In this document: piece after piece, positions 1-59,870 of the stretch | Layout: each line of letters begins with the position of its first letter | Numbering within the stretch: the first letter of the stretch is position 1 | Assembly (NCBI GenBank): GCA_001938485.1 | Contig: MQRK01190407.1 | Span: 1 to 61,401 of the forward strand | DNA length: 61,401 bases | Direction of reading: 5' to 3' | Origin: Girardia tigrina | Lineage: Eukaryota | The notes under the pieces: model-generated | Told to the model about the DNA's origin: nothing | Databases searched by the model: none | Seen by the model: only the letters and a program-made list of their open reading frames with translations | Made by a program: the position numbers and the translations under genes

Positions 1-2
1 TA

Positions 3-206
3 GCAAATCAAATCGGATTCCAAGATTATATGAGAGTGTTGCGGGAACAAATCAATAAAATTTCTGAAATGCGAAGGATCCAATCAAGAGAACATCAAGT
101 CTCTACAGTAATGATGCGAGAGAAAAGCCTTGACTGGTTCGACGATAAACGACATATTTTGCCAGATGGAATAAGCACATTACCTCATGGATATTATCTT
201 TTGTGA
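3..206 (+). CDS. C-terminal end of protein-primed DNA polymerase B (pPolB) of a Polinton/Maverick (5' part lies before the window)
   Basis: Manual translation from base 3: ANQIGFQDYMRVLREQINKISEMRRIQSREHQVSTVMMREKSLDWFDDKRHILPDGISTLPHGYYLL*. It matches the Polinton pPolB C-terminal signature (I.F.DY...L...M..I.S..H...T....K.L..FDDKR.IL.DG..TL..G). Not in the ORF track. Confidence 0.85.
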   Translation, partial: ANQIGFQDYMRVLREQINKISEMRRIQSREHQVSTVMMREKSLDWFDDKRHILPDGISTLPHGYYLL

Positions 207-397
207 ATGATATACTTGTAAATATTGTACATATGTTAANNNNNNNNNNNNNNNNNNNNNNNNNNNNNNNNNNNNNNNNNNNNNNNNNNNNNNNNNNNNN
301 NNNNNNNNNNNNNNNNNNNNNNNNNNNNNNNNNNNNNNNNNNNNNNNNNNNNNNNNNNNNNNNNNNNNNNNNNNNNNNNNNNNNNNNNNNNNNNNAA

Positions 398-662
398 AAT
401 AATAACATTACACTGCTCATTACAAGTTATATAAAAATAACATATATACAATAATAACATTACACTACTCAATACAAGTTATATAAAAATAACATATATA
501 CAATAATAACATTAAACTACTCAATACAAGTTATATAAAAATAACATATATACAATAATTACATTACACTGTTTAATAAACGTTATATAAAAATTACACT
601 GTTTAATAAACACTATATGAAAATAACATTACATTGTTTAATAAATGCTATATATAAATTAC
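398..662. repeat. 52-bp tandem repeat (AATAATAACATTACACTRCTCAWTACAAGTTATATAAAAATAACATATATAC), decaying to shorter units
   Basis: Units start at 398, 450, 502 and 554. Flanked by N gaps. Confidence 0.9.
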
Positions 663-1896
663 NNNNNNNNNNNNNNNNNNNNNNNNNNNNNNNNNNNNNN
701 NNNNNNNNNNNNNNNNNNNNNNNNNNNNNNNNNNNNNNNNNNNNNNNNNNNNNNNNNNNNNNNNNNNNNNNNNNNNNNNNNNNNNNNNNNNNNNNNNNNN
801 NNNNNNNNNNNNNNNNNNNNNNNNNNNNNNNNNNNNNNNNNNNNNNACTTGTGTACATTAGGAGATTCATGAGGTATTGTTTGATGGTAAACAACATACA
901 TATATCATATGGGTTTCAGATATATACGAAAAAATAGATTTTTGAGCACTTTCTTGAGAATTTCAGAAATTTTCGAAAAAATCAATTTATCAGCACTTTT
1001 ATGAAAATGTTGATGTGGAATCTGAATGTACGTATGTGGTTTCCTATTCAAGTGTATGATCACTTTTTTGATATTCTGCTTCCTTGTACCTTTAAAATCA
1101 ATGTGCAAATTGTGCAAATTTGCACATTATACTAATTATAGAGAAAAGTAATCAATATATGAAAATTCTAATGGCACATTAAAATAGAGAATCAAAATGT
1201 GCATCAAACACATGATATCGATTTATGACACTAGCACTTTTAAAAAATTTAATGTATTGATTTTTGCACTTTTGCATATGTGCAACTGGAAAAGCACTGT
1301 GCTAGCACATTAAAAATGTGCGGCACAATGTGCACTATCGATTGGCACTTTAAAAGTATCGATTAGCACATTCGGGCACTGTGCAGTGATCGATTTGTAT
1401 AAAATTTCAAAAAATCGATATCATTGGAAATCGATAATTTCATATTTTTCGGATTCAGCACATCAACTTGTCNNNNNNNNNNNNNNNNNNNNNNNNNNNN
1501 NNNNNNNNNNNNNNNNNNNNNNNNNNNNNNNNNNNNNNNNNNNNNNNNNNNNNNNNNNNNNNNNNNNNNNNNNNNNNNNNNNNNNNNNNNNNNNNNNNNN
1601 NNNNNNNNNNNNNNNNNNNNNNNNNNNNNNNNNNNNNNNNNNNNNNNNNNNNNNNNNNNNNNNNNNNNNNNNNNNNNNNNNNNNNNNNNNNNNNNNNNNN
1701 NNNNNNNNNNNNNNNNNNNNNNNNNNNNNNNNNNNNNNNNNNNNNNNNNNNNNNNNNNNNNNNNNNNNNNNNNNNNNNNNNNNNNNNNNNNNNNNNNNNN
1801 NNNNNNNNNNNNNNNNNNNNNNNNNNNNNNNNNNNNNNNNNNNNNNNNNNNNNNNNNNNNNNNNNNNNNNNNNNNNNNNNNNNNNNNNNNNNNNNN

Positions 1897-2070
1897 GTTG
1901 CCATGGTAACCGCGACCGTTGCTGCCTAGGCTAAGGTGATCGCGACCGTTGCCATGGTAACCGCGACCGTTGCTAGGGTGATCGCGACCGTTGCCATGGT
2001 AACCGCGACCGTTGCCATGGCAACCCCGCATGGTAACTGGTTACGTAACCATGGCAACCACGGTAACTAG
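1897..2070. repeat. 21-bp tandem repeat GTTGCCATGGTAACCGCGACC built from RFX X-box motifs
   Basis: Units at 1897, 1948, 1969 (variant), 1990 and 2011 (perfect palindrome GTTGCCATGGCAAC), plus GTAACCATGGCAAC at 2045. Confidence 0.9.
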
Positions 2071-2126
2071 TAACGACCCCCCCCCGGGGGGAGGGTCTGC
2101 CGGCGAAGGAACATTTTTCCCCTACT

Positions 2127-4363
2127 CATTTTCATATTTATTTTGTAATTTTTGTGATGCTACAAGTAGGCTCTTCTCTTCCATATCATTCAAATTCCAT
2201 AGAACTTCAAATAATTTGCATATAGAAGAAACAGTTTTAAATCTTTCCTTAAGTCCATTTAATATTGCGTCAATAATCTCGTTAAATATGTTGTAAAAAT
2301 ATGTTTCTGCAGATACTTGATCTTTTATTCGGCGATTTTTCGCAAATTCTGCAATGATTTCATTATTTGCTTCAATTTTCTTTGACTCCGAAAGAAGTAA
2401 ATTCCATCCATTTTTAATTTTTGTTTGTCAATATTATTTCTTTCTGTTGTCAGTGTTGCTTTCTGGGTTCAGAGAATTAGATTTGTTTCATGTAATAAGA
2501 CAAGAACTTTCATCCACATTGTAAACATCAAAACACATTCAAATGATGTAAGATATTTTTTAAAGAATTCAATCTGAGTCTGAGCTTCAGCTGAAAAACT
2601 ACGTACCTCAAATCCATTCACAGCTGATAAGGATTCTAATTGAAGGGTAACTAGTTTAACTGCATCTATTCTTGAAGACAATCTGGTTTTTGAAATGTTG
2701 TGTAAAGAAATTCCATGCATATGGTTTTTGGACTGCTATCTTTTGGGACTGCTACTAAAAAAGTTATATAAATGCTGAATAGTTCCGAAGTATGTTATTG
2801 CTTCTTTACAAGATTCTGCTGCGTTAAGTCGAATAAGATTTAAAATTGTAAATCCAGTGCACTAATTACATCCTCTTCCATTGTGGTTACACTCTCAACT
2901 GTAATTTCATCCAGCTCCTCTATTTCGCTAACTGTATCCCTTACTGCACTTTCAACAGTGAAATTTTCTTTATTACATATTGAAGATCCTTCTGCTTGAT
3001 TTGGGGAATCTTTATTGAAAAACTATGAAATTGGTTTTAATTTTTTAATAGCATCATACATAAGTTTTTTCTTTTGCATTTTACTGGCTCCACTTTCAAA
3101 AGTCCTCTTTATCTTTTAATCACCGACCTTGTTTAATTTTTTGTAATTATTATCCATAAAATCAAAGATTAATTAAAATAAATAACCTTTTATTTTTGGT
3201 AATTTTGAATTAATTTTCACTACCACTAAAGGCTGAATTGATGCAAAATTTGGTTAGGCAATAAAGATTTCCAAACTAAGACTTCTATTTATAATCGCAT
3301 TTGAATAAATAAAAAAATTGAACTTTTATTCCTATTTAGAACAACTCACAATATCGATTCAAAATTTCACAAAAAAAGTTAAATCAATTCATGCAGTTCA
3401 ACAACTGATATTTTTCAAACAATTTATACAAATATGTTTTTTCACAATTAAGTTTAATTTTCCAAACAAATCAGTCATTCAAATTAATCAATGTTTTTAT
3501 TTTAATTTTCAACACCGAAACATTTCGGTTCATATTAAAATGGTTAGTTCCATTTTAAATATTATTATATTATTATATATTAAATATTATTATATATTAA
3601 ATATTATTATATATTAAATATTATTATATATTAAATATTATTATATTTAAAATGGAACTAACCATTTTAATATGAACCGAAATGTTTCGGTGTTGAAAAT
3701 TAAAATAGAAACATTGATTAATTTGAATGACTAATTTGTTTGGAAAATTAAACTTAATTGTGAAAAAACATATTTGTATAAATTGTTTGAAAAATAGCAG
3801 TTGTTGGACTTTAAAAATTGGACTTTAAATTAATTTTAAGTATTTTTTATAATATAGGGTTTTCATTTTCAATTGAGACTTTTTAATTTACATTGAGAAT
3901 TTTTCATTTTAAAATCAGATTTTTATTTTGATTTGAGTTTTTCAATTTTATTATCGGTGTTTGATATAGATTGGAGATTTTCGATTTTGATTTTGATTTT
4001 TTATTAAGATTTAAAAATTTTGATTTAAATTCGGATTTTTTTGTAAAATTTTGGCTGATCGCGGATTAAATATATGTAAAAACTTTTTTATATGTAAAAA
4101 ATTGGAATCCTCTAACAACTCAAATTTTTCAATAATATTTTGAAATTATAACGTTTTTTTAAGTTCAGTTATTTTTTGTACTTCAACCATTAATAATAAC
4201 GTTTAAAACACTATTTGAATTCATAACCTACAAAAATGTTTTTGGAGTGAAAAAGTTGTGAAGATTTTACACCAAAGTTTTATATAAACTTTTCAATGGT
4301 GTTTATATCTATATTTTGGAGGCCCATGCCAAATGGCCCATTTTCCCCCTTTTACTAGCCCTG
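2127..4363 (-). mobile_element. Degenerate hAT transposon (ZMYM1-like transposase pseudogene ~2127-3157), truncated by the Maverick insertion
   Basis: Minus-strand peptides KRTFESGASKMQKKK, LHNISKTRLSSRIDAVK...KYLTSFECVLMFTMWMKVL and NIFNEIIDAILNGLKERFKTV are typical of ZMYM1-type hAT transposases. A hAT-like terminus CAGGGCTAGTAAAAGGGGG reads inward from 4363. Confidence 0.7.
3395..3810. repeat. Long near-perfect inverted repeat (~165-bp arms) with a 17-bp AT tandem repeat in the loop
   Basis: 3395-~3560 is the reverse complement of ~3645-3810 with few mismatches. The loop is (ATTATTATATATTAAAT)n. Confidence 0.9.
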
Positions 4364-4800
4364 TCAACATGTATATACGAAATAATTGTGTAAATATAAA
4401 TTCTTTTAAAACCTCTAAACAAGTTTTACAAAATATAAATGTATTACAGGTTAATCAAAGCTATTTGAAAACTAAAACTTTAACGAGGTTTTAAATTATT
4501 TATGGTACACATGTTTATGTAAATATCTTTAAGATAATACCAAAATTAACAATATCGAAACTTAGCTTTCAATTTAAAGTACGTCCGACTTATGAGGATT
4601 TAAAATTAATAAAGGAATTTTTTATTCATTTACAATTCAAAGTGCAAAGATGATCTAAAAGTCAGTGTGAAAAATAAATCAAATATATTCTTTATCCTTT
4701 CCTAAACATTTTTTAAAAAATATGTAAATAACAATGTCAATTGGAATTTGATTTGGAATATTTTAATGATTATTTATTTAAATTTATTTGACCTTTTTTA

Positions 4801-5340
4801 TCAAATTAAATTTTTAACTAAAGTTTTTACTTTGCAGCTATTAAGAACATTTAGACAAGTCTCGTTTGAATTTTTACTACAATCGCATTTAGAGTCATTA
4901 TGACTCTCAGAAAGTCCTTCATTATTTGTCATCCTTCTAATTGGTTTTCTTATTTCTATCTTTAATCATGATTATTCGAACAATTTTTAAGTCATTTTTT
5001 AAAATATTAAACTTCTAAATAATATTAATTAAAAATAATAATTTTTACCACTTCTCAATAAATCTCAAAATAATAAAAATGTTATCAAATTATTAAAAAT
5101 CTATTTAATTTAAATTTTACTAAAAATATTAAACTTAATTTTAATTGTTAAATTAAAAAAAATATGAACTTATAAAAGGATTATTTTAATTATGTTCGAA
5201 TAGTCAATCACTTTAAATTTAAATAAAAAATACCAATTTCCATCTGGGTGGGAGAATCACCATTCTAAGTTCAACATACTTAAATCAACATGCAGCATCA
5301 CTACATTTACACATTCAAACAATTTAAAATATTCCTCACA
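4801..5340 (-). repeat. TGTGAGG-family element copy A (type A), with short ORF 4932->4801 MTNNEGLSESHNDSKCDCSKNSNETCLNVLNSCKVKTLVKNLI*
   Basis: Highly similar over ~500 bp to 41620-42120. Its head is similar to 61135-61260. Confidence 0.8.
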
Positions 5341-11684: not shown

Positions 11685-14600
11685 TGTAGTGGAAATGTCT
11701 AAAAGTTGTTTAAATAATCAGAATTCGGTAAATTGTTGGGAAATCTTGTGATATAAATAAATTCTTATTTTCGATATTCTCGTTCACAAGCTATCGTGGC
11801 TTTGTGATGAAGACTCTGAAAATCGTGCCGGCGTATGATTGTATTCTTTTGGACGGATTGAACATCAGGCAGCGGTGAGCAGAGCGAAGCAACTGGCACG
11901 CACGCGGATTGACGATTCTGATTTTATAGCCGAGTTTGACGGCCGCTCATGGACGGAATTATGGAAGTGGAAGATTGGTGAGGAGCCACCTTAGTCACTT
12001 GTGAGAGTGGCCGCATATGCGTCAGCCAAGCAGTAGGAAGAAGAGGTGAGTCAGGAGTTGTCCAAATAGAAAAAAAATGGATGGCTCATCAGTTTTATGG
12101 CAAAGCAAAGGCGATTTTGCCTCTGATAGCGGTGGCTCAGACGGCCAAGGGAAGGTGCAACCGGTGCTAGACTACAAAGCTTTAAACGAGTTCATGTCCA
12201 GCCCCACCGCAGAAAACCTGGTGTGCGCTGAAAAGCTGCGCAGATAGCGGAAGATTGCTTGAGATAATTGATTTTAGGCGGGCATATCTCCAAATCAAGG
12301 TGCACTCGAGAATGTGGCCCTATCAAGTGATCCACTACTAGGGGAAGACGTGGTGCCTGAAGCGACTGGATTGAACACGGAACCAAAAATTACGAGGCTC
12401 ATCATGGACAACGTGCTCAGGTCTGATCCACAAATTGCGGAAGCTGCAGATGCTTACTATAATGATATTATAATTAACAGCAGTAAAGTATCAGCGGAGC
12501 GTGAAAAAAAAACCGCCGGTAAAAATTAATGAAGATAGAGTGCTTGGACTCGGAGTGCGGTAGACTGACGGCATCGAGACGGCAATATACCGGATTTACC
12601 AAACCGTTTAACGCGACGGAAGTTATTTTCATGGGTCGGTCAGCTCGTAGGCCATTTCTCGGTCGGCGGTTTGCTGAGGCCAGCATGCAGTTTTATTAAA
12701 AGGCTGGCCTGCAGAGGCGGGTGGGACGATACAGTAGAACCACGTGTAGTGGATATGGCGCAGAAATTGGCGGAACGGCTAGAGAGCGAAGACCCGGTGA
12801 ACGGCAAGTAAGAAATTCTTCTTCTTTCTTTTTGACCTTAGCCGTTGGGTCGCTGGTGCACCAAATAATAAACAAGCCTTAGCCACATTTCTCTATTCGT
12901 AGCTTCTTCTCATACGTGGCTTCTTTCCATACTCAATCCACTCCATTCTTTTAAATGGTTTCTTTGGTCTTCCTCTTGGTCTTTTTCCTTCCACTTTTCC
13001 TTCAGTCATAAGTGGGAAATACCTGACCGAAAATACGGTCGAGTGTAGTGTAATGCAAGTTCGATCGCAACCGGTATCTCTGTAGAGATAGGAAGAGCGG
13101 TAGACGAGGATACTTCGTAGCTTTGCAAGGAGGATGACGCCGCTCACATCAATCTGGCATAACTTAAAGCGGCTAAGGAGGCAATAAAGGAAGCAGTCGC
13201 GTAGGGATTAAAAACATGGATATTATGAGAGACTCCGCCACTGTGTTCCGGTGGTTGACAAACACTACGAGAGTCAATGGACCTGTCAGATCCAGTGGAA
13301 TGAGCAAGCTGCTCATAAAGCGACACATCTGCACAATCAAGCAGACTATCGAAGAGGAGCAGCTTCGTGTGGAGTGGAAATTTGTCAGTTCAGCAGAGAG
13401 CCGAGCAAATCGCCTCACTCGCGTGCCTAGTGACTGGCTAATAGCAGTAAAGGATCAACCGAATGTAGCGGCAGTAACGATGGAGGGAGAGCGGCAGCCG
13501 ATAGATCGTCTGCAGGCGCTTCATGCTATCCACCATTTCGGGGTGAAGTGGATGATATTCTTGGCGAGAAAATTGTGGGGTCCAGGGCAAATAACTGAGA
13601 AGCAAGTGCAGATGGTGGTGAAAGGATGTTTTGAGTGCGCATCAATCGACCAGTCACCGGTAAAGTGAGAGAAAGGCAAGCTTGGCGTCAAAGAAACATG
13701 GAAGTGGCTCGCGATATGTGACACACACATCTAAGGGAAAGTACATGACACTGGTAGATTGCGGACCGGGGTGGTTCGCGGTTTGGAGAAGGATTGCTTC
13801 AGAATGCGATGAAGATTTATGTACCACTCTGAAAGCGGTGTTCAATGAATTCGGTCAACCACAGGAGTTTCTACAGGAAAATTTTACGACACATCGTGGA
13901 GCAGTAATCCGACAATTGTCTTAGGCAATGGGTGTCAAAATGCGGTTTCAGTGCGCGAATCGACCTCGTAAAAACGGTATCGTTGAACGCTGCCATCAAA
14001 CCAAGAAGCGCATGGCGGCACAAAGTTGGAAGCCAGTTCACAATATGGTTGCGTGGTACAACGCCACTCTAAATTCGACGGGCGTGATTCTGGCGTCCAC
14101 AGTGTTAGCACAACGGCAGCGACTGCCGCTACCGGTCTATTTTGCAGATCGGCTTCCAAAGTACACTGGCGTTTTACAGACGAAGAGTTTACAAGTTGGA
14201 GACGTCGTGTTCGTGAAACCGATAAACGCTAAGTACACGATTAAGTGGAGACGAGCAGTCGTGAGCGGATTCCGCCTACCCCATGAAGTCAAGATTGACG
14301 GGGTCCCCTTCCACGTGTCACACATAAGGCGCGTGCCAGACGGCGGGTCAAAAATGCCGGCAGAGGGACTATCGAGTTCGCGAGCGGTCTCCAGATTTAC
14401 GAATGCAGGCGACTGCAGTGAGAGCTCAGACGAGGAAGACGAGCAGACATTGAATAGTATAACGGATGAAGTAAAAAACTGTCAGACTCAATCCGAAGAG
14501 GTGGGGCAACCGAGTCCGAATCGAGCGTCCGTTCGGCCGACGCGATTCGCAAATTATGTGTGCACTGGAGGGACATAACCAGATCCGAGCGTGACTTTCC

Positions 14601-14750
14601 AGTGCACAGAGGGCATATGCGTTTGTGCCTTGAAGGCAAGGGAGAGTGTAGTACAGATGTTGAAAAGTTGTTTAAATAATCAGAATTCGGTAAACGGTTT
14701 GAAAATCTTGTGATATAAATAAATTCTTATTTTCGATATTCTCGTTCACA
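11685..14750 (+). mobile_element. Ty3/Gypsy LTR retrotransposon, internally deleted and degenerate (RT, RNase H, integrase)
   Basis: 104-bp LTRs at 11685-11788 and 14647-14750 (TGTAGT...TTCACA). 5-bp TSD TAATT on both sides. Purine tract GAAGGCAAGGGAGAG before the 3' LTR. RT-like DAYYNDIIIN, integrase HHFGV...C..C, LVDCGPG and NGIVERCH motifs are present, broken by stops. Confidence 0.95.
12817..13009 (-). mobile_element. 5'-truncated RTE-clade LINE 3' end inserted in the Gypsy pol
   Basis: MTEGKVEGKRPRGRPKK (RTE C-terminal motif), a GAA-type tail, and an imperfect 11-bp TSD AAGTAAGAAAT (12806-12816) / AAGTGGGAAAT (13010-13020). Confidence 0.8.
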
Positions 14751-14829: not shown

Positions 14830-16390
14830 TCAATTTCAAATTTTAATAAAAAAATAATTGCAGAATTAGTAAAATAGACAAAGAAAGACTCATCAGCGCT
14901 TACATTAAGTCAGAGAACTATCTGACTCGGGCAAGGCAACTCGATATATCCCAATCATCTGCCAAGAACATTGTCTATAAATATCAACAATGCGATCTAA
15001 TATCAATCGTAAAATATGGAGGCCACAAAAAATCCATTATTACCGACGAAATCGGCGAGACGATTATTACGTATCGAATTTGGGAGAGATAAAACGGTAT
15101 ATTGAGAAAAAACAACGAGATCAATACATCAGAATCAACAATTTTCAGTTTCCTCACCGGTAAATTAATTACCGCCAAGAAGATCAGAAGAAAGAAATTA
15201 AGATCGAATTGAGAATCTTCAATTTTAATACACCAACCAATTTATAAGGGAATGTTGACGAATGAGTCAGTGTTTACATTTTATTTTATTGATAAAATCA
15301 GATTCAATCTGTGAACCAGTCATTAATTCGTTTATTCATAAAAAAAGTATTCCGATTTATATCGATGTAAGTCTCAGTATTATTTTCGGATGAGAATTTA
15401 GATATTTTCGAAACTTTTTTTATAACAACAATATAAACATTATTCAAACAAGTTTTCATAATTTATATTTTAATAAATAATATTTATATTGAAATTTGTA
15501 ATTTTTATTGCACAAACCAATAAAATTAAAATAATTATAAATAATCATATGCAGATTTATTATTTTCGAAATTTTGTTATTTATTTAATTTTATAATTTT
15601 TTTGTCTTATAAAAATGAACTATTTTAATTATAAAAAAAATTATTGGGAGAGAGTGACATGTAAAGCGTTATATATTAGATCTTTGGATCCTAAAATTAA
15701 CGTTCAAACTGCACTCTCTACAACTTTGTTGAGTATTTTAATTATAGTTTATATATTAACTTTGTATTTAATTTTGTATTTTTTTAATATTTATTATGAT
15801 ATTTATTTTTCTTTCATCGTATTTACTTTTAAAGTTTAATAAATTCGGTTAAAATCGCTTTCGGATCTTATATTAAATTCGTATTAAATCTATTTTATTT
15901 AGTAATTTGATTATTTTAAATTTCATTCGTTTTTTTTAATTTATTCAATTACAAGTTTTATTATTTCAAATTTTATCTAAAACATTTTTAAATATTATTC
16001 ATATTGAAACTTTATACCGCATTTTAAAATAAATTTCTATTTTTTACTTTTATAATTAAATATTAATTTTAAATGTTTTTTATCTTTAATTCAAAAATTC
16101 AAGAGACATCAAAAATCCTTATAATAAGCATTCCCTCAAACAGGGGTAAAACTATGTTGTTCATTATGGCAATATGCAGGAAAGGTCCCCTGCTATTCAA
16201 ATTAAGCAGTGACAGGAATCATGCAGAATATCAATTTTTTATAAACGATTTATCCAGTTTTTTGACAGGGACACCGCATTATTTAATCCAGGTCAATATT
16301 TCCTCCAATCATGAAATCGTAAACTTACTCTAATATTCTTCAATCATCAATCCAATTGAGGTGTTTTTCGCAAAATTGAAACGGATATTC
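14830..16390 (+). mobile_element. Fragmented IS630/Tc1-like transposase (14830-15330 and 16100-16390), interrupted by AT-rich and Penelope-derived sequence
   Basis: HTH-like ARQLDISQSSAKNIVYKY, GGHKKSII, IPSNRGKT and YSSIINPIEVFFAKLK. Same clade as 45556-47036. Confidence 0.65.
15615..15745 (+). mobile_element. Penelope-like element 3' fragment (GIY-YIG C-terminus)
   Basis: NYWERVTCKALYIRSLDPKINVQ resembles the PLE endonuclease tail (R...EAL.I....P.IN.Q). Confidence 0.55.
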
Positions 16391-16769
16391 AGTACAGCAA
16401 TAACACACCATCCAGGCCTTCTGACACTAAATCATCACCAAAGACTTGCCGTTTTGCACGAGAAAATCGAGGCTGTGGCAGTAAATGAAAACAATTGATA
16501 TCTGACGAATTACTGTTGTCATTTGAAGAAATTCTTTTTTGACTGTCTTGTGAAGAACAATATTCATGGCGATTGATTGCAGAAACATATTTATTAACAG
16601 TACATTTATTATAAGAAATTAAATTATACAAAATCTTACCTTTTTAAATTTATAAAATCAAAATACTTGAAATATTCATGAAATTCCAAATACGCCCCTT
16701 TCACTTAAATGCTGGCAAACTACTGTCAACCACATGACACAGCAACTTCAAAAATTATATTACTCCACA

Positions 16770-16867
16770 CTTAGAGGGGAGGGAATTCAGAATTTTGTTA
16801 CGATTTGTTAAAGGGGATGGGTGTCTAATAGGTACTTTTGTGTTGTGTATTATGCGAAGCAGCCTTT
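16770..16867 (-). mobile_element. MITE terminus (Harbinger-like), related to 60692-60770
   Basis: Reverse complement AAGGCTGCTTCGCATAATACACAAC...GACACCCATCCCC resembles AAGGGATCGTTCGCTTAATACGTAAC...GACCCCCCTCC at 60692. Confidence 0.4.
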
Positions 16868-17305
16868 ATCAAAATAAAGACTATTTATATATTACTTTCT
16901 AAGGCGAAGGATGTCATAATAAAATAACTTCATTTCTTTAAATTTGTATTCTTTTAATCAAACATTCAAAATTTCTGAATTTAATCATCTTTAAACGAAT
17001 AAAATGCATTAAAATTCATAAAACCCGAAACAAAATAACTGAAGTTAAAATTAATTTCAAGTTCATCACATAAAAGTAATATGATATTTATATTGATAAA
17101 ATAAAAGCGATTTTTCAAATAGAAAATCGAAAGTTTTTACCAAATAATATTAATTCATTTAAAATTTAGTTCTAAAATGTTAATCAAATAAAAAAATCAC
17201 ATTTTTCATTTGTTTTAATTTATCAATTTGATAATTACGATATTTAACAACAATTTGAATTTGATGAATATCATTTTCGTAACTATAATTTGAATTAATC
17301 AAACA

Positions 17306-19653: not shown

Positions 19654-22600
19654 ATCTAAATTAATAGAAAGAATGGAAAGTAATAACTAATTATAATATG
19701 CAACATTGTTATAATTAAAATTCATAAATTTAACTTCATTCATAAATTTAATTATCTCAAAAAACATTTCTCATTATCGATGTATTATAAAAATTCAATA
19801 AAGTTTATTATTTTTATTGGTTGAAGATCATTATAGGCAATTAATAATAATTAATTAGATTCAATTTTTAAACATATATTACATATACATATCGTTGTAC
19901 TTATAATATATTTATATTAATTGATTCATTGATATATATGAAATATATAAACTAGTCAAAATTAAAATTTGTATAATCATCGAGAAGCAATATTCTTTTG
20001 GTTATCATTTCAACCTCAGAATACTGATCGAAATGCGTTTTCTCTACATCAATATGTTCATATGCATAGTCAATAAAAATAAAATAGGTTATATTCGCTG
20101 CAATTTCTAAATTGTTCTGGAGACTCTCCGTTGTTAGCAGAATCATAATGTTTGTGGTACTGGGCTAATTTGTATTGATAAATAGTTATTCATTGATGAC
20201 TTATGTTTTAAAATTGTTATATCTATGTATATATATAAAATGTAAAATAATAGAAAGAATGGAAAGTAATGACTAAATTATAATATCCAATATTGTTATT
20301 AATAGTATTGTGTGAATTGTAAAAAAACCGTCAGCAAATAATTCTTTCAAGAAATTCAAGATTCAAAATAATTGTTCGATACAGTCCCAGGTTGTCCTAA
20401 AAACTGACCAATCAAAGCAGTCAAAGCACTGGATTTGCTGCCGTTCACGCTGGGCCCATTTAAAATTGGGTATTCATTTTAAAATCGTTTTTTATTTTAA
20501 ATTATTTCAAAATCTTTTTTTATTAAATTAATTATTCTTTTTTAACATTATCTTTATGTATACATAAATAAATGTATATATACAGTCGTGGGCATAATTC
20601 ACCGGCCACCCTTGCATTTTAAAGAAAATTAATATCTACGTGCGTGTGTGGATGTAAGTGCATGTAAATAATGTTCTTAACCAACATCCAATAAGAATAC
20701 AGCTTTAGGAGTATACCCACTATGTTATTATGATATATAAAAGTATTTGTGTCAAGTATTTGTGACTATTCCGACATGACTAGCAACCAACTTTTACCCA
20801 CTCTGTAGGTACTAATCGTCGATTTACAGGACACTGGATTCTCGAACCGTGCAATTGCCCTGCGAATCAATATTAGCAGCGCTGCAGTAGCCGACACTCT
20901 CCGTCTTCATCAAGCCACCGGCGCCTTTGCGTATACGAAAAGCAGTGGAAGGCCGCGTATCATAAGCAAAGTGACAGATCGAGCCATTTTGAGATCCTGC
21001 AAGATCAATCAATTTGCTTGTTCCCGTGCAATACAAGCTGATCTTTCAGCTAACATTGATAAATTACCTAGCGCACGAACCATTCGTCGACGTCTGGTTG
21101 AAGGAGGCTTTCGATCGTACAAGTCTGTCAAGAGACCGCGTATATCGTCGAAGAATATTCGTGATAGGCTCGCGTTTGCAAAAGCTTACCAATATTGGAC
21201 AGTGGATCAATGGCGTTCGGTTATTTTCAGTGATTAAACCACAATCTGTCAGCAAGGAACATAGATCCACACGGTGCGCCGGCCGCCTGGTCACCGCTTT
21301 AGACTACAGTACAGAGGGCGCCTAAAGTTATGATTTGGGGCGCAATTGCTGCCAGAGGTCGCTGCTGTCTTTGGTTTTGTCCCAAGGGAACTACTATCGT
21401 TTCACTTGTGTACAATGGCATTCTTCGAGATAAGGTCCAACGCTTCTTTCAAATGCGTCAGTGCAATTCTTTCCAACATTACGGGGCTCCATGCCATCAA
21501 TCGCGACTAAACAAAGCCTGGTTGGAAACAAACGAGATCAACGTTCTGGGTCCATGGCCTGGCAACTCACCTGATTTATCGTCGATTGAAAATAGTTGGA
21601 GAATAGTGAAAGAAAAGGTTTGTAAGCATGACCCCTCATCATATGATGACCTACTTGACGTGATTAAACGTGTTTGGGTACAGGAAGTCAGACTCGAATT
21701 CACTGAAAATCTAATCACGTCAATGCTACGCCGATTGGCAGGAGTGATTAATGCAAAAGGTGGCCATACAAAGTACTAAGGGAAGAGTGTTTGAACTGTG
21801 CATCCATATCTGTATTCTTCTTATAATTTGTATGTACTGAATATATCCTTAATACTTCGTTACAATATCAGTTAGTCGAAAATCTCAGTATTTTTACGGG
21901 TGGCTGGTAAATTGTGGCCACTTTCATTTTGATGTAAGTTCCATTTTTAATGAATTTTATGATTTTTAAGTTCAAATTTATTGTTCGCAAACCTAAGTCG
22001 CTTATGTTTTTAAATTAAATAATGGTAATATAATTGCTGCGTTNNNNNNNNNNNNNNNNNNNNNNNNNNNNNNNNNNNNNNNNNNNNNNNNNNCCTAAGT
22101 CGCTTATGTTTTTAAATTAAATAATGGTAATATAATTGCTGCGTTATATATATATATATAACGCAGCAATTATATTACCATTATTTAATTTAAAAACATA
22201 AGCGACTTAGGTTTGCGAACAATAAATTTGAACTTAAAAATCATAAAATTCATTAAAAATGGAACTTACATCAAAATGCTGAAGCTTTTTAGAGGAAAGA
22301 ATTCAAACTTGAAATTCCGAAACTTCTTATCCCCATTGATCCCTCTCTATTGTCATCGGTCTTCTACTGGGTCCATCGTATCCTTTTCGAAGAAAATGAT
22401 TTGATGTTAATACATTCTCTTCTTAATATCTAAATCCAAAATCAATAACGAGCTTTCATTCAAAAAGTTTCTATTTTTGTCATAATCGTTATTAATTAAT
22501 TAATGTCATAAATCTTACATGAGTCAAACATTTTAAAATATCGTTAAATAATAGCACAAACATATGGAGTATGTAATATAAAAATGAAATGGTGGAATAT

Positions 22601-25600: not shown

Positions 25601-28600
25601 ATATTAAGGAATATCTCTGTAATTCTAAGGTATTGCATAATTATACATTGTGATAAAAACCTCTGAATATTCTTTTATTGTATCGTAATACACAATAACG
25701 CTTTCACACAATCACACAATACTCATCACGAAATGTCTAAGACGAAATGTTCTGCAATATATTTGGCATATTTTATCATTGTCAAATAATGATAGTGTAA
25801 GACCATTATAAGATAACATTAAACAACTGTTATAGAAAAACTAATTTCAAATCAATGTCAATAATTCAGATTCAATATATACAATAAAGTAAAAGAAGAG
25901 TTGTAAACAGTACACCGACACTTCATAACTTTGCTTAAAATTAATTGAAATGTGATTTTAACAAAGCTTACATAGAAATTAAAAACATTAATATTCTTAT
26001 AAAATTTATTATTTCATATCAAATTGATTAGAATATTTTTCAGGGAGTTGTCAGATCAGTCTCTGTTGTCGAATCTTCAGATACGATATAGTCAGAAATT
26101 AATATATGTTATTATTCTTCTTTGACTTTTTCCAATTATGTTGTATTATTTTTAGACGTACATTGGGAGTATTCTCATAAGTATCAATCCATACACAGAA
26201 CTTGGGATTTATGAAACGAAAAATATTCAGTCCTACCAGAACAAGTCAATGCAGGATATGCCACCGTAAGTTTACCTACAATTATACAATGATACATCTT
26301 TATACGTTCATATGTAAAAATATGACTTTTAGCTAACGAATTAAGGGAAAAGGAATAATCCATTCCCACAAAAATAAATCGTCTTATTATTGACAAACAA
26401 GACTTGTGCAAAGCGTATCTATTCTGAGGAACCACTGTACTAAATAATTAAATTTCGTTTTACAAAAATATAATCTCGGTTATTATCAATAGACTTCAGT
26501 TTTACAATTAAACTAAATAATTACAAAGTTTTAATGTAAAATTTGAAAGAAATTAAAATATTATTTATGAAACCAATTTGAAAAATGTCTATTCGAGATT
26601 TGTAAATTAAATTTTCTTGCCTCATATTTTTTCATCCAAAATCACATATTCTTTCAGACATGTGTTACTGAAAAAATATTTTTTTATTATTTATTTATTT
26701 ATTACTTTTATTTTTTAAAAGTAAAATACATTTAGAAGTTTTGAAATTTAGCAAATTTATCATTTTTGACATGATCAAAAACATTTTGACGGAAACTAAC
26801 TAGCAAAGAAGCAAAGCAATATTAAATAAAAGAAATAGTAATCCAGTTAGGAAAACATGAAAGAAGCTCAGTGAAGCAGAAATTAGCCGATTTGACCGAA
26901 CATTGTTGCCAGTTAAGGAAAATAAATTAATTAAATAATTAAGTAAAAGTAAATTAAATTAAAATAATTAAATAAATTAAAATAATTAACTAAATCCTTT
27001 TAATTAAATAAAAAAAGTAATTAAATAAATCAATTAAATTAAAGAAAAATAATTTAAAAAGTTCAAATAAAATTAATAATTGAACGATTTAATCTATTTT
27101 CAGTAGTTTCGTTTGTCTTTTCTTTTTACTGATGTTAGTTTGTCAATTCAATCTTATATTCATAATCTGCGTCAGTACTCATTAATAAATTAATCAAGGA
27201 AAATGTAAATTGTGAAATTTGAATGAATTGTGAGCCTCCTTTTGTTTTTATCATTGTTAAAATCGGTCGTGATTTCAAATCAATTTGAACGACCAATTGG
27301 GTAAGTTGTTGTGTGAATGTCTGGATTGCATGTATGAAGATGTGATTATGTAATTGCTTTGTTGATTTGTTGCAATAGGTGAATGCATGTTAATGAGTGA
27401 ATTTTTGTCTCAATTTAAAAATTTTTAAAACCTGAGAATTTAAAAAGGTTTTGGGTAAAGTGTAAAATAATAAAAGTTGTCGGTTTTCAAAAAAAAGTGT
27501 TTTTCAACAAATAAAAAAATCTTGTGAATTCGTCTTATCTATTGTGATTCTAGCTGTAAATTATACAAAAAAATGGATAAAAAACCAGTTTATTTATGTA
27601 AAAACTTTAAAGAACTTCAGAAAAAGTCTGAAATCTCAAAATATGTTACTAACAGTATCATGAAGACATGTGAAACATTGTCGAAAGTCTATGAGCAATA
27701 TGAAAAATCTCTTCTCGAAAAAGATGAGGAAATAGCGTACATCTATGTCATGAGATTCCTGACGATGGTTTGTGAAGTTAAAAAGTCATTTAAAAGCGAT
27801 ACAAAATACATTAACGTGATGTTCAATTCCGAGAAAGTCAATCAGGCATTTGAGAAAGCAGAAAAGTTAAAAGAGAGTTTACAAGCGCGATATGAGCTCG
27901 ATAAACAAAGAGAAATGGAAATAAAAAAGGAACCAGTGAAAGACTTCAGTAATGTCGTGAAGGAATTCGTTAGCGTGGAAGAATTCTACAAATGTATCAA
28001 ACAGAATGAGAATGTATTGATTATTGATTCGCGACCGGAATCAGAATTTGCTGCGTGTCACATTTCTCACACACGAGTTTTTAATATCCCCGCTGATTCT
28101 CTGAGTGCTTTAGATAATAAATCGACGAACACTTCTTCTCTTCCCAAAATAACACGGAGACACGGCTTCCTGTCCACTCAGATTAGTATAAAGTATAAAT
28201 AATCGTATTTTTGACAAATATTACAACCATGAGAACTTTTTAGAAGCATTTATTAAATATCTGATATATTAGTCATATCGTGACCTAGATGGTAAAGTTT
28301 GCGAAGATTAGTTTATGTGGTATCCTTTTTTTAACTTTAAAACAGCCCAATTTGTTGACCAAAGCCAAAAAATGACTCCTTTTCCAAATGTGTTGAATTG
28401 AAAAATAATTCTAATTACAATTCTGAATTCGAATTAAAAGTAAAAAAGTAAATTATTAGGTTGTTAAAGCTTGTGTTTTTTATGCGTGAAATGAAAAAGT
28501 ATATAAAATTAAATTTTTTAAAAACTCTTTCAAAAATAATATCATCAGAATATATTTGGAATTCTGATCATTTTGCAACACTGTTTGTGATGATGATGAT

Positions 28601-34231: not shown

Positions 34232-37200
34232 GATATCCGTATTGAAAACAGATATAAGGAGGTAACAATAAAAAATCAACATATTTTCCAAAAAAAATTA
34301 TGAAAATTATTTTAGCGGGATACCGAAAATGTCAAGTGTTGGCACTACATTATGCGACACAAAGTAGATTCTAAGCTCAACACCAAGCAAGAGTCGAAGA
34401 TGAATAAAGAGTGGGAACTTTTATTTTTTTAAAGACAGTACTTGAGTTCCTCAAAAAATATTTGTTTGAAAAATCTATTATGTGATAGAAATAAATTTTT
34501 GTGTCATGATTTTAAATTTTGAATCCGAACCCAATAACTTTAAATTAGAATTCTTTTGAGTTCTACGATAAATGTTTAATATTTATCTATCTGTAACATT
34601 TCATCAAGCAAAACGATTAATACAAATGTAAATAAAACAGATTTCTTTAATAATCCGGGCCTAGAAAAAAAAGCGTTTTCCAACCATAAACTGAAAACTT
34701 GTAACATTTAACATCGATTTATTCATGCATTTTGTCGAGGAAGCTTGTTCACTAATAATTAAAGTGCCTTTCCCAAAATTATTCTGTACTTTAAACTAAA
34801 ACATTTCCCAAATAAATATAGTGTAAAGTATTCAAATTCTTCTTCTTTCTTTAGACATTTATTCGGAATCGGAGAAATTAACTACTCAAAAGCTATGATG
34901 GAAAATGAAAACCAAGTAATCGTTATCAGGTTATTTTTTAAAGTGTCATTAAAACAATTAAAATTAATTGTTTTTTATAATAAGTGGAGAATCTGGAGCT
35001 GGAAAGACTGAAAGCTTTAAGAGGCTGTTGAAATATTTTGCTTACGTTTCTGGGGGATTCAAAGAATCTAAACACAGTTCTGAAATGTCAAATGATATTG
35101 CAACAAAAATATTAGACAGTACTCCGTTACTGGAAAGTTTTGGAAATGCTCAAACAATACGCAATGATAATTCCTCAAGATTTGGAAAATATGTTGAAAT
35201 ATTCTTTGAAAAGTAAATAATAAATTAAAGACAGATTTATTCGTTTAAAATATTAATGTTATAGTTTAAAAGATTCATAGAAAATTCTAGATTATTAAAA
35301 ATAACTGATAAATATATTAGTCAAAGAAATCCAAATACTTAAGTCTACTCCCCGTTTTTGGCGTATACTAGAGTAAACACTGTTCAATAAAAATATAGGA
35401 TGAAAATTCTCTTATTGAATCCACTTGAACATTATTAATCCAATAGTATATTTATTATAAAAAGGAATCTCCCGTTTAATATTTTATATTTAATATACAA
35501 AATAATAACCTTCTTAAATAGCCTATATGTTTCTGAATCTTTTCTCATGTCAATAATCAATTACGCATCACCTATTAAGCGATGAAGATGGAAGGGATTG
35601 TATAACTAAAATTTATTTTTTAAGTATCTTACCATATTTTGGATTTTAATTAGCAGTTCCAAACCCAGCACATATTTTCAAACTCGAGATTTCGGTATTA
35701 CATTTTTCCATATCACCAGATCTCGAATTAAGAACACGGCAATATTCATATTGTGTACTTCAATATACTTCCATTTTTGAAATTGTTATACAATATAGTT
35801 CAGTTAAAAAACTGTGAAACAAGTTAATTAACATGCATGATAATTTGGTTTATGAACTCGCTTTGACAAATGTTAAATAAATAAAAATATAAAAAATAAA
35901 TTTTAACTGAACTATATTGTATAGCAATATAATAAAGTAACAGAATATAATAATTCAGGTTACAATTTAATTTTTTCAATCGATCTCGAGAGAGATTCTT
36001 GGGATGAGAATTGGTTATTGGGTTTTTTGGAATTTTTGTTGTTGATATTGAGGAACAGCCGATGGTAACGAGTGATGATGAGATTCGATAAATTGAGGTC
36101 AGAAATTGCTGTTGTTGAATTGTTCATATCACAAGAAAAGTATTAAAATCCACTGTTGACACTTTTGTAATTCCATGGTAAACATCCTTTGGAAACCGAA
36201 ATAAATGGACAAATTGATAAACCAACACAAGTAAATCTGAATGAAATATTTCCAACTAGCATAAATTAATTATTCATTAATAAAAATGGATGTGGAGATT
36301 CGACATTTCATTAAAATTTTTTTGGGGCACCACCCAACTCGTCCAACGACTACATCTACGCGGACAAAGAACTGGGTGGATTGGGACTGATCTCTGCTCG
36401 AGATGAATACTCAATTCAATCTATTATCCAAAAAACTTGCGAAGAATGTGTGCTGTCTCCAATCTTTTATCTTATAAAAGCCCAAGTCACTCACTGCCTC
36501 ACTGCCTCACTAACGCTCATATTATCTACTTACAATTGTAAGTAGATATTTATATTAATAATAATTCATATGGAAAATTATTATTAGCAGAATTATTCAT
36601 GATAATTTTCCATATGAATTATTATTAATATAATTATCTACTTACAATTGTAAGTAGATAATTAAATTAATAATAATTCATATGGAAAATTATCATGAAT
36701 AATTCTGCTAATAATAATTTTATATTTTTATATTTTATTCATTATATTTTTCGGTAGGATTTTCAACAATGGCAACTTCTCAAAAGGGTAATTTACTGAA
36801 TAATGAACGAGTATTTACCAAAAATATAGTTTATAAAGAAATTTTATAAAGACACTTATTTCTAATGATTAAATGTGGAAAACAAATGAATTTTAAAAAA
36901 AAAATGTCTTGAAAATTTATTTGAAATTTTAACTCTATATAATTATATCCGTCATACATGACGGGTTATTTACTAGTGTCAAATATTGCTCAACGACTTG
37001 CATCAAGCACAGCACTGGCCAATGGAATCCCCTACAAGGAGAGGAAAATTGATGCAATGTAGAGAATTGTATCTCAATGAATGACTGTAGTTCGAGATAT
37101 CTGATCGCTGTCGTTGGACTGCATATCTATCTTGTTTTACAATAAACTGTGTATTTTTTTGTCGAAAATGATTTTAGCAATATTTTTTTCTTCGAATTAA

Positions 37201-43348: not shown

Positions 43349-43558
43349 CAGGGTGGCCCAATGGGTACGCAGCCTCTAATTTGTGCATATTCTAAACCTA
43401 CTCGTCAAGACGAGTATTTTGATATATAACATGTGAGGTGTAAAAATTCCAGAACTTGACCTTTTGACTCACATGTTATATATCAAAATACTCGTCTTGA
43501 CGAGTAGGTTTAGAATATGCAAAAATTAGAGGCTGCGTACTCTCATTGGGCCACCTTG
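43349..43558. mobile_element. Tc1/mariner-type MITE (near-complete hairpin)
   Basis: TA TSD, TIR CAGGGTGGCCCAATG and ~90-bp inverted arms. Confidence 0.9.
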
Positions 43559-56625: not shown

Positions 56626-57329
56626 ACCCTAATGAAATAATGGATTTTTAAATAATTGATTTAAAAGTAATATATAAAGACAATGATAATTATGCTTGTA
56701 CTAATTTTAAAAGTTATTCTAATAATAAAAATTTGAATATTGTAAATTATTTTTTGTATTTATATTGTATTTAAAATAATTGTAGGTAAAAATGCTTTTA
56801 AACTGAAATATTGATAATAAATAAAAACGTTAAAATCTTTATTAATTAAAAAACTTTTCCCAAATAAAAGAAAATAACATTAAACTAATTCTAAAATAAT
56901 AAAAAATCATTTCGGTTAATTTAGTAAAAATATGACTACAAAATGATTGATTATGACTACAAAAATTGGTTTTAATTTAAATTAAATTGCATAAAATAGT
57001 GGTATGTAAATTTTCAAAAATAAATAGAATAAACAATTTCAATTTTAAAATAACTTATCAGTATTTATAATTTCATATTTTTATATAACAATCTGGTCAA
57101 AAAGAAAACGAAGAAAAGTTCCTCAACAAACAATTGTTATTAAAAAATTGTTAACTAAAAATTGTTTGAATAATTGTTAATTGTATTATAAATAAAATTC
57201 TGGTGTTAATGAGTCTTAATCTCGATCAAGAACCCAATATTTATATTTGTAAACCTTGAATGTTTCAACTATTTTTAAAAAAGTCGAATTTGGCCTGAAA
57301 TCCTATAACTGGCAAAGTAAATTGCTTGC

Positions 57330-59870
57330 TGATGAGGACGGACCTCACCCACGACAGCGCGTCGCCATGGCATTGTACACCTCGGGTTCGCCGGTTTCAC
57401 AAACACTGCATCGGCCGCTCGGAACTCCGAATTGTTCTTGACCTCGCTTTTGGTATTCGGCTCGCAAAATCCCTCGGTAGTAGTAATTGCCTCTGTTGCG
57501 CGAAAACTGTGGACGCTGGAATTATGTCAGATGAATTTGGCATCGCGTTGTACAACACGATTATATCCTTGATTGATTCCCCGCTTCTTGCTGGCATGTG
57601 CTTAATCGTTCGATGATAACGATCGACGATCCAATTTCCACTCGGCCGATTTGCGCATCGGAACATGATCTCGACGCCCACTCAGGTCAGCAATTCTCGG
57701 ATCGCTATTCTAGATTGGTTGCGAAATTGACCATCAGGAGTTCTCGCGGCGGCCCGAATTCAGCAAATACTACCCTGAAAGCGGCACACAGCTCTCATCG
57801 CTTTCGGATCTAATTTTTCGAGGCAATGAGAATCGTCCTGGCCCGCAGTCCACCAACGTCATAAACTTCCCCTTGGTGGTGTGCGTTATTACGGAAAGGA
57901 GTTAATGAATCAAAGATCCTCCCTAACTCGCCTACGCAATCACGTAATATAATACAATGAAAATAAAAATTATATAAATTAGTGAAATTATAATTATATA
58001 ACAATTAAAAAGAAGTGGGTAAGAGTCAACAAGATAGCTAGTAAATCACAGGACAGAATCACAAGAAATAGGGAGAAAATATCACTGGGATTTAACGTAA
58101 AAAGAAATGATAGTTACTTTTTAGTCACGATCAAACTCAGATTGGTTTCGATAAGGTATAGGGGAGAGTATCGGAAAAATATCGATGATAAATAGTTGTT
58201 CCCGCCCTGTTTTCGCTCGGGGATTGATTGGATTGGGGAACTTTGTATCCTTTGTTCGGTGGGGAAAATTTGATCTGATTCGATTTAGAGTCTCGATCAA
58301 TCTCGAGGTGGTCTTGATAGAATACGGGAACAGTATCGAAATAGTATCGATAGTAAGTAGCGGTACCTGCTCTGTTTCTGTTCAGGGATTGATTGGATTG
58401 ATAAGCTCTGTTAATCTTGTTCGGTGGGGGAAAATTTGACCTGATTCGATTGTTTCCGTATTCACGAATGGTCCAAGTGAATTAATTAATTCACTGACAG
58501 TTAATCGGAAACGGATGATTTTTTGTTTCGTTACCACGATTGTAACGTTCGACAACAATTGCTTTTCTTTTAGTAACCAAAGTTAATTATTTATTTTCGT
58601 CTAATTTAGATCAATTATTATTGATCTTTTTATTTGCATTAATTTTGTATTGCCATAGGCAATATTCTTCTTCGCATAATATTAAAGAAAATAATAATAT
58701 TTAAAAAAATGAATATTATGTGAAGCTGTTGAAATAAAAAGTAAAAAAAAATAACAAACACACTGAAAGCAGGAAAATCATAAAAAAATAAAAAAATGTC
58801 ACAAAAATAAGCGACATACACACAAAAATACAAACGGGAAATAATGCGTCGGTAAAAAAAATAAAACCCGCAACATGCGTTACATACATTGAGAGTCTGT
58901 GCTATGCATTGCATTTCTCCCATTTCATTGCTGTGGGATCAATTGACGCACACTGAGAACACTTGTTTACGACCGCTCGGATTTGACTCTCGGATACACG
59001 GCCAGGGCCCCATAGTCTTCTCGCCAGGATTTTCATTCTTTTCAATTCGAAATTGTGAACCTTGTGGAGTGTTTCTAGACTATCTGCTGTCCCATGCTCT
59101 ACTTCAATTCCAACGGCCACCACTTTGAATGTTCCTTTTGCTGGCGACAACTAGTCATTCAGTACTCTCGTGAGGTCATCTGCTTTATTCTCTGCTGAAC
59201 TCATTAACTTCCATGTTACATTCAGTCATTCTTCTTCAGTTATTTGGCTGATGATACTTATCCATCGTTTCACCAACAGCACGCTCATTCCCTTGGATTT
59301 GACTGGTCCGTTGCCCATCAACGCATTTGCAATCCATCTGAAAACTATGGCAAAGCCCGTCATGATCTCGAACTCGTCCAGGCCTCATGCCACCGCCGCT
59401 TCAACTGCTTCGATCGCTGCCTCCAGTTACTCCAAGTTTATGTGCGCTGCGTAGTCCTATTTGCGCAGTCAAGTTGAATCCTTGACAACTTCTCTCCTAA
59501 TCCCTACAGAAATTCCAGTTGCAAGAGAACTCGAATCGTACCACATACGTTCGCGTCTGCATTTCGGAACGTCCCATCTCTTGGTCACAGAGTCCTCGCT
59601 CTTCAGTCGTTTCTCTAGCTTTTTTTGCGATTTCCGCCACATGCAAATCTAGAGGCTCATTCCATCCACCACCATTGACTGCTCCCTTGAGGAAAATACA
59701 TTTTCGCCTTAACCAGCTGCCAACTGGGAAATGTCCCAATAGTTGACCAACTCAGGAGAAAAGTTTGCACCGCGTCAACTGATCTGGTAGTTATGGGATT
59801 TTGCCGTCTGTGAAACACCACAGTTCTCCTTTGGATTCACACACAGCGAGTCCGAGTACCCTTCCGTCGT
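57330..59870 (-). mobile_element. Degenerate Gypsy pol (RNase H and integrase), same family as 11685-14750
   Basis: LARRLWGPG...CSQCASIDP, KGKFMTLVDCGPG and FRCANRPSGN.IV.R.HRTIK mirror the 13.5-14.1 kb peptides. Confidence 0.88.
57887..58875. mobile_element. Probable solo LTR (989 bp) nested in the Gypsy integrase
   Basis: 5-bp TSD TGCGT (57882-57886, 58876-58880). Termini TATTACGG...CCGCAACA. Internal direct repeats at ~58219-58285 and 58385-58452. Removing it restores YVTH-TTKGKFMTLVDCGPG. Confidence 0.8.

Follow-up and report, generated by a model that had tools for sequence, protein, structure and literature searches.

The closest described counterparts of the locus analysed here are Polinton/Maverick terminal inverted repeats (TIRs). 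According to passages of PMC8097293, these measure 46–1,447 bp, the gene modules of most vertebrate Mavericks point inward, and virions are unobserved. The portion of its supplement that deals with end motifs gives these as 6 bp only; CCTACT occurs 41 times there, as the 3' end motif in 29 of the first 30 occurrences, from Mavericks of tuatara and axolotl, where AGTAGG is mostly its partner. In one planarian, Polintons acquire H3K4me3 as cells differentiate to neuronal and epidermal lineages, according to a section of PMC8532177 that leaves RFX unmentioned.

That terminal repeats of viruses and mobile elements can contain sites for host factors is already known, from AAV and from LTRs. Part of PMC5760533 describes RFX1 and RFX3 binding to the D sequence of the AAV ITR, with an effect on transgene expression, and RFX binding to the HBV and polyomavirus enhancers (EF-C/EP sites). 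RFX at a viral terminal repeat thus has a precedent; the first-pass annotation of this DNA had invoked RFX1/EF-C at DNA-virus enhancers. NF-Y, a proposed pioneer factor that binds the CCAAT box, cooperates with RFX5 (excerpts of PMC4889920), and NF-Y CCAAT sites are present in the LTR enhancers of ERV-9 and PERV (excerpts of PMC10968565). Full-text searching of openly accessible literature brought up no description of a Polinton TIR with an RFX or NF-Y array. The terms polinton, RFX and terminal inverted repeat co-occur in PMC11464507, with RFX only as a host gene in the matching passages; those of PMC11414722 report putative factor sites in repeats including a C. elegans Polinton TIR, RFX being unnamed, and those of PMC8502044 hold nothing on ITR motifs.

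Here I describe a window, i.e. the whole stretch of 61,401 nucleotides that was analysed, in which a Polinton-type element appears to end in an array of RFX X-boxes. On balance I consider it probable, from the motifs and their arrangement, that the terminal repeat of this element holds, at positions 1897–2126, a lineage-specific minisatellite of RFX/NF-Y enhancer type. The features on which the argument draws are as follows.

3–206, plus strand: final 67 codons, with the stop codon, of a protein-primed DNA polymerase B (pPolB) of Polinton type, which is oriented toward the terminus.
398–662, no strand: AT-rich minisatellite with 52-bp and 30–35-bp units, downstream of the pPolB stop and between two gaps.
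847–1472, no strand: non-coding segment with 22 GCAC (both strands) and six ATCGAT, and no long open frame in six frames.
1473–1896, no strand: assembly gap of 424 N that cuts the array and probably conceals more units.
1897–1910, plus strand: X-box GTTGCCATGGTAAC, 0 consensus mismatches.
1918–1940, plus strand: B-type unit with 9 extra bases, interrupting the 21-bp phase.
1948–1961, plus strand: X-box GTTGCCATGGTAAC, from the consensus search.
1969–1982, minus strand: degenerate X-box with one strong half-site and 1 mismatch; the plus strand reads GTTGCTAGGGTGAT.
1990–2003, plus strand: X-box GTTGCCATGGTAAC, from the consensus search.
2011–2024, no strand: perfect palindromic X-box GTTGCCATGGCAAC, from the consensus search and PMC3414849.
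2045–2058, plus strand: X-box variant GTAACCATGGCAAC, outside the 21-bp register and 68 bp from the end.
2063–2074, plus strand: short 12-bp X-box-like site without spacer, 1 mismatch.
2077–2091, no strand: C9G6 palindromic tract, which follows the array in the displayed loose ends of three of four sequencing runs.
2121–2126, plus strand: element end motif CCTACT (AGTAGG on the minus strand), at the junction 2126|2127.
2127–3022, minus strand: broken hAT-family transposase, i.e. flank outside the element, its frame severed at the junction.

The element sequence ends with CCCCTACT at 2126, its last six letters being CCTACT; CCCCTACT/AGTAGGGG has a single match in the window, and the other end of the element lies outside it, and with it the second TIR and the partner copy of any 6-bp target-site duplication. 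In the flank, the hAT frame is 69% identical to P0011 (PF14291 and PF05699), and the alignment breaks off precisely where the junction lies, at residue 337 of 457. Contig pieces stop at 2126 in run X5 or begin at 2127 in run X1. The summed depth of X1 is 7.8e7 on the array, 1.4e6 at 2107–2127 and 1.2e4 just past the junction (a roughly 100-fold fall), while that of X5 goes from 370 to 51 across it. The end motif, the cut in the hAT gene and the drop in depth together establish that the terminus at 2126 is real, and with the pPolB C-terminus they sustain the Polinton-type terminus proposed in the first-pass annotation.

Two other readings of the surroundings were discarded: that the flank is itself Polinton DNA, given the hAT homology from 2127 onward, and that 847–1472 is the rest of the hAT gene, the array being a small insert, as no such frame is seen in the six-frame translation (judged by eye). 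Further into the flank, a minus-strand sequence at 4290–4363 of the window, starting CAGGGCTAG, resembles a hAT 5' end, and is probably the start of the hAT relic that the element interrupted.

Assignment of the element to the Polintons comes from the pPolB fragment and the end motif. For the fragment, nine of 17 candidates gave matches, with five at 72–93% identity and two full-length matches with PF03175; identity to the C-terminus of one of them, P0008, is 50%. For one close relative of the fragment (P0003), no confirmed viral locus was found. The pPolB C-terminus lies 1.9 kb inward of the terminus with three N gaps between, and its continuity with the end at 2126 is inferred across these. 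Both distance and orientation fit the relatives: among the 24 related pPolB contigs of at least 12 kb that were tabulated (of 53 loci), the pPolB C-terminus is within 3.3 kb of a contig end in 11, and in one viral contig (L149) pPolB points outward at a 1.09-kb inverted repeat. The inward-pointing modules of most vertebrate Mavericks count against the outward assignment made here. No ORF for an integrase, ATPase, protease or capsid was identified in the window, and the element would extend to the left of position 1. The minisatellite at 398–662 is presumed from its position to lie inside the element. Segment 847–1472, in which neither the GCAC nor the ATCGAT count is reached in any of 1000 shuffles, may belong to the subterminal part of the element or have been inserted separately; it may also be a second, putative binding-site array.

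The three N gaps and two unrelated repeat segments between pPolB and the end leave room for a reading that is not exclusive of the favoured one, in which most copies of the end are a very abundant non-autonomous derivative or free arrays, while the pPolB at 3–206 and the end at 2126 may be parts of different elements. The depth of X1 on the array, about 40–55 times that near the end (1.4–2.0e6), exceeds what a few intact elements would give, depth being no measure of copy number; it is also inflated by multi-mapping, 90,848 contigs fitting in two places, and by hidden units. I regard this reading as unlikely, as the end motif is of Maverick type and the distance and orientation of pPolB relative to the end match those in related elements.

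The array itself is GC-rich and adjoins the 424-N gap. Against the X-box consensus GTNRCCN0-3RGYAAC there are 0 mismatches at 1897, 1948, 1990, 2011 and 2045 and 1 mismatch at 1969 and 2063, and the box at 1897 also has 0 mismatches to a second published pattern, GYTRYYN1-3RRHRAC. The first-pass annotation had named the motif the canonical RFX X-box, with which the consensus and the palindrome given in excerpts of PMC3414849 agree. It had also claimed a 21-bp array of two 14-mers, with more at 1897 and 2045. The 14-mers are confirmed at 1897, 1948, 1990 and 2011, with a variant at 2045; the 1969 unit, GTTGCTAGGGTGAT, is neither of the 14-mers that were quoted. Tandem Repeats Finder (TRF) reports a 21-bp period with 4.0 copies at 1941–2025 and a better 42-bp period (97%), so that two unit types alternate in the array.

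A search of the whole window at up to 2 mismatches returned 10 strand-matches at five places, while 100 shuffles of the whole window averaged 0.32 matches and never gave more than 2. When the 230-bp segment alone was shuffled, a site within 1 mismatch arose in 0 of 2000 shuffles, versus 4 observed. At up to 1 mismatch, the 230 bp hold 9 site starts, some overlapping, versus 11 across the 58,630 bp beyond 2130.

Helical phasing, also claimed earlier, holds for the 21-bp spacing of four units (1948–1969–1990–2011), to which strict spacing is confined. It fails on either side in the window copy: the step from 1897 to 1948 measures 51 bp, owing to the 9 additional bases in the unit at 1918, and that from 2011 to 2045 measures 34 bp, which breaks the register. 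Elsewhere, at least 119 unrelated metagenome loci have a tandem X-box pattern; the 119 listed form 67 clusters with modal spacings of 15 to 44 bp, and 18 of the 63 scorable clusters are in phase versus 16.3 expected, i.e. there is no bias. With the phase broken in the window and unbiased in the control clusters, the case for helical phasing as a functional rule is weak.

A search for pPolB at the 119 tandem-X-box loci listed gave no match, and LINE, MULE and host genes are among the 51 of 125 long frames scanned at these loci. As a type of repeat, tandem X-boxes are hence common and do not mark Polintons. X-box minisatellites and satellites with periods near 18, 21, 30, 39, 41 and about 145–155 bp are widespread in metagenome contigs (examples are L020, L079, L090, L037, L112, L032 and L042, with others among L001–L119).

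Conversely, the array is absent from all 53 other pPolB loci (19 viral, 34 in metagenome-assembled genomes, MAGs; 512,446 bp), in which no 230-bp segment has more than 2 sites or 3 half-sites, versus 14 half-sites in the window array. The array is thus not a general Polinton trait, as far as a weak control goes, since few of these contigs include ends (only two, L149 and L158, have inverted repeats at both contig ends). The proposal that tandem X-boxes generally mark Polinton ends was dropped, being contradicted by the pPolB-free tandem loci and by these 53. Searches with the array patterns in viral contigs and genome contigs gave no match, and a pattern joining the end to an X-box had two viral matches, one identical stretch inside an ORF of contigs with 57% GC, which were set aside as chance.

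The inverted repeats of L149 (1.09 kb; 1–1086 and 15844–16929, on a pPolB-bearing viral contig) contain one two-mismatch box at 285 beside a CCAAT, such as chance could yield. The region near 274–360, with CCAAT boxes and one degenerate X-box, is like a host-type promoter, and among its motifs are what I take to be a GC-box-like one and CCGGAAGT. The 34 Polinton-type pPolB loci in prokaryotic MAGs (L167–L200) are probably mis-binned eukaryotic or viral contigs. X-boxes near an end also occur on an AT-rich, virus-like marine contig with an MT-A70 methyltransferase gene, where two perfect GTTGCCATGGCAAC boxes are 25 bp apart (L065:14–52 / L111:301–339), 37 bp from the contig end (L111:375); this end begins TAGGGGA like that of the present element and is possibly a Polinton-like virus end. 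At up to 2 mismatches, no box is present in the available DNA of the 26 viral relatives of this contig. A primase-helicase is encoded by one of these relatives, and a protein similar to double-jelly-roll capsids (a lead only) by another.

These controls bear most directly on the possibility that the array is a neutral or structural minisatellite, in which slippage within the terminal repeat multiplied a palindromic seed, the X-box match being incidental or of no use to the element. The recurrence of X-box tandems in 67 unrelated clusters (at least 119 loci) without phase bias, the lack of the array at the other 53 pPolB loci, and the presence of other minisatellites in the same region of the element are all in keeping with it. 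The single strand of the array also folds better than shuffles (z -3.76), though its centroid structure is weak (-9.4 kcal/mol). What this account leaves unexplained is the occurrence of separate, non-tandem sites at 2045 and 2063 and the company that the boxes keep in sister copies; I judge it improbable, while taking it seriously.

Part of the stretch is contained in 20 of 24 listed runs, and four of these were examined by contig placement, one per organism label. The array is covered in all four, so that the sister-copy test set beforehand came out in favour of the earlier annotation. In X1, 201,002 of 15,685,190 contigs (1.3%) fall on the stretch, which suggests very many variant copies in organism A, summed depth giving no copy number. 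Run X10 has the array and the hAT with almost no cover at 2044–2127, and X18 has the array and no hAT. Contig joints skip 36–133 bases, so the number of units varies among copies, and the C/G tract can come straight after the last box in three runs, X1, X5 and X10. The 7-base linker between boxes in X5 and X10 differs in sequence from that of the window. Variants inside boxes at 1976, 1980 and 2021 fall on tolerated positions (among the 40 of 103 rows listed), but may reflect one unit type aligned on another, and they carry little weight here. Metagenome runs sharing 10–38% of words with the stretch (biofilm, leaf litter, aquatic, wastewater) were rejected as evidence of habitat.

While the visible array of the window copy has no CCAAT box, CCAATCA is found in 11 of the 24 loose-end rows listed (there are 447 others), across all four runs. 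These rows are column summaries of many contigs, with an agreement of 0.53–1.0, no contig spanning the whole stretch. The form is mostly CCAATCAG, which I take to be a strong NF-Y site, a few bases past an X-box-like site and just before the next such site; in one X1 row, the box-to-box distance across the X-box/CCAAT unit is 31 bp. Loose ends upstream of the array show box-like and CCAAT units as well, and the gap at 1473–1896 probably hides additional ones. CCAATC lies within 60 bp of a box at only 3 of the 119 tandem-X-box loci listed, so that the pairing of X-box and CCAAT seems particular to this element. The CCAAT box is not palindromic, and a hairpin bias cannot therefore account for it; its presence beside the boxes in all four runs is a point that a neutral minisatellite does not explain. 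Judged by their motifs, the CCAAT boxes of the sister copies point to a general promoter/enhancer module, and the array looks like a borrowed host-type enhancer. The analysis turned up nothing that connects the element with germline or ciliated cells, the coupling that the first-pass annotation had suggested.

At the origin of adenovirus, replication is assisted by NFI and Oct-1, the host-factor sites lying at a fixed short distance from the terminal core. The first-pass annotation had placed the present array at an origin/TIR and suggested a possible coupling to replication; in an origin role of the adenovirus kind, host RFX, as an auxiliary factor, would help load a terminal-protein/pPolB complex at the end. 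The element does have a protein-primed polymerase, its sites are no more than 230 bp from the end, and the AAV D sequence bound by RFX1 and RFX3 is itself in an ITR, yet the effect reported for AAV, in the relevant part of PMC5760533, was on transgene expression. The nearest full box is 68 bp from the end, and copies differ both in the number of units and in how far the array is from the terminal C/G palindrome. With joints that skip 36–133 bases, and a last box that can directly precede the C/G tract in three runs, the geometry is not the fixed short distance of the adenovirus type, and I consider an origin role quite unlikely.

Arrays of subterminal sites are common in DNA transposons, and the repeats could instead be read by a protein of the element, be it an integrase or a winged-helix domain that recognizes an RFX-like palindrome. 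The neighbouring segment 847–1472 likewise has repeated short motifs. But the boxes match the host RFX consensus exactly and are paired with a second host-type motif, and no such element gene is visible in the window, which makes this the least credible of the readings, and a very unlikely one.

The preferred enhancer-type reading can be put as a model. A Polinton/Maverick family would have inserted into a hAT relic, with 1897–2126 as the outer part of its terminal inverted repeat. This repeat would hold a minisatellite of variable number, whose units are putative host transcription-factor sites. Here these are X-boxes spaced at 21 bp; in sister copies, with a spacing of about 31 bp, each X-box-like site has a CCAAT box (NF-Y-type) a few bases behind it. 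Host RFX dimers and NF-Y would bind the array and keep chromatin there open, much as an LTR or ITR enhancer does, and the array would drive element genes from the end that faces them, the number of sites being adjusted by slippage or unequal exchange. No gene start adjoins the array, and its position downstream of pPolB means that this end cannot serve that gene as promoter; its action would be that of an enhancer or would come from a mirror copy. A mirrored second end, the binding of RFX and NF-Y, and a transcriptional function are all inferred parts of this model.

With a terminal repeat built from the consensus sites of a named host factor, Polinton activation becomes directly testable, and the apparent abundance in one organism (1.3% of the contigs of a run) would mean a large reservoir of RFX sites in that genome. 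A wider reading of the same motifs, that a Polinton family turned its terminal repeats into dense RFX and NF-Y enhancer arrays and spread these to very many sites, is speculative and in my view rather unlikely. If true, activation of the element would be wired to RFX-high cells (ciliated or sperm-forming), and the arrays together would suffice in number for titrating host RFX or for seeding X-boxes into the host ciliary gene network. The X-box pair near a similar-looking end of the marine virus-like contig would then hint that RFX-reading termini arose more than once.

The remainder of the window is animal-like host DNA (28% GC) with USP8, myosin, Tc1-like, hAT and Gypsy-like sequences. A GC-rich, decayed Gypsy-like LTR element spans 11685–14750, with direct repeats of about 104 bp at 11685 and 14647 and a weak integrase match, and a second copy is near 57275–59751 on the minus strand. 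Pieces of host genes (USP8 N-terminal and rhodanese domains, a myosin head exon) are at 27528–28202 and 34968–35216, and long near-perfect inverted repeats, MITE-like or foldback, at 3385–3820, 21925–22278, 36574–36721 and 43365–43540. An Rfam search of 1–5000 gave no match.

How the locus relates to known systems can now be stated, each within the limits of the excerpts of the source named. It resembles the Polinton/Maverick TIRs of PMC8097293 in having pPolB near the end and the CCTACT 3' motif of tuatara and axolotl; it differs in its host-factor array, described for none of those, and in the outward pPolB, unlike most vertebrate elements. The ciliary X-box regulon of Drosophila Rfx (PMC3414849) shares the identical palindrome GTTGCCATGGCAAC and the consensus, but typically carries a lone site close to the start of a gene, frequently alongside a Fox motif, whereas the array here is non-genic. 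The LTRs of ERV-9 and PERV (PMC10968565) likewise place host-factor sites in the terminal repeat of a mobile element, but are retroviral LTRs rather than Polinton TIRs, and RFX is not the main factor there. The X-box/Y-box module of MHC class II, read by RFX5 and NF-Y (PMC4889920), has its likeness in the X-box-like site beside CCAAT of the sister copies; here, however, the arrangement is tandem, with few bases between sites, and seen in loose-end summaries only, while RFX5/CIITA belongs to a vertebrate immune context. Finally, the D sequence of the AAV2 ITR and the EF-C sites (PMC5760533) provide an RFX-type site within a viral terminal repeat or enhancer, as proposed here; in AAV2, a free virus of vertebrates, EMSA demonstrated one site in the ITR, in contrast to the tandem array of variable number, with putative sites assigned by sequence, in an integrated element.
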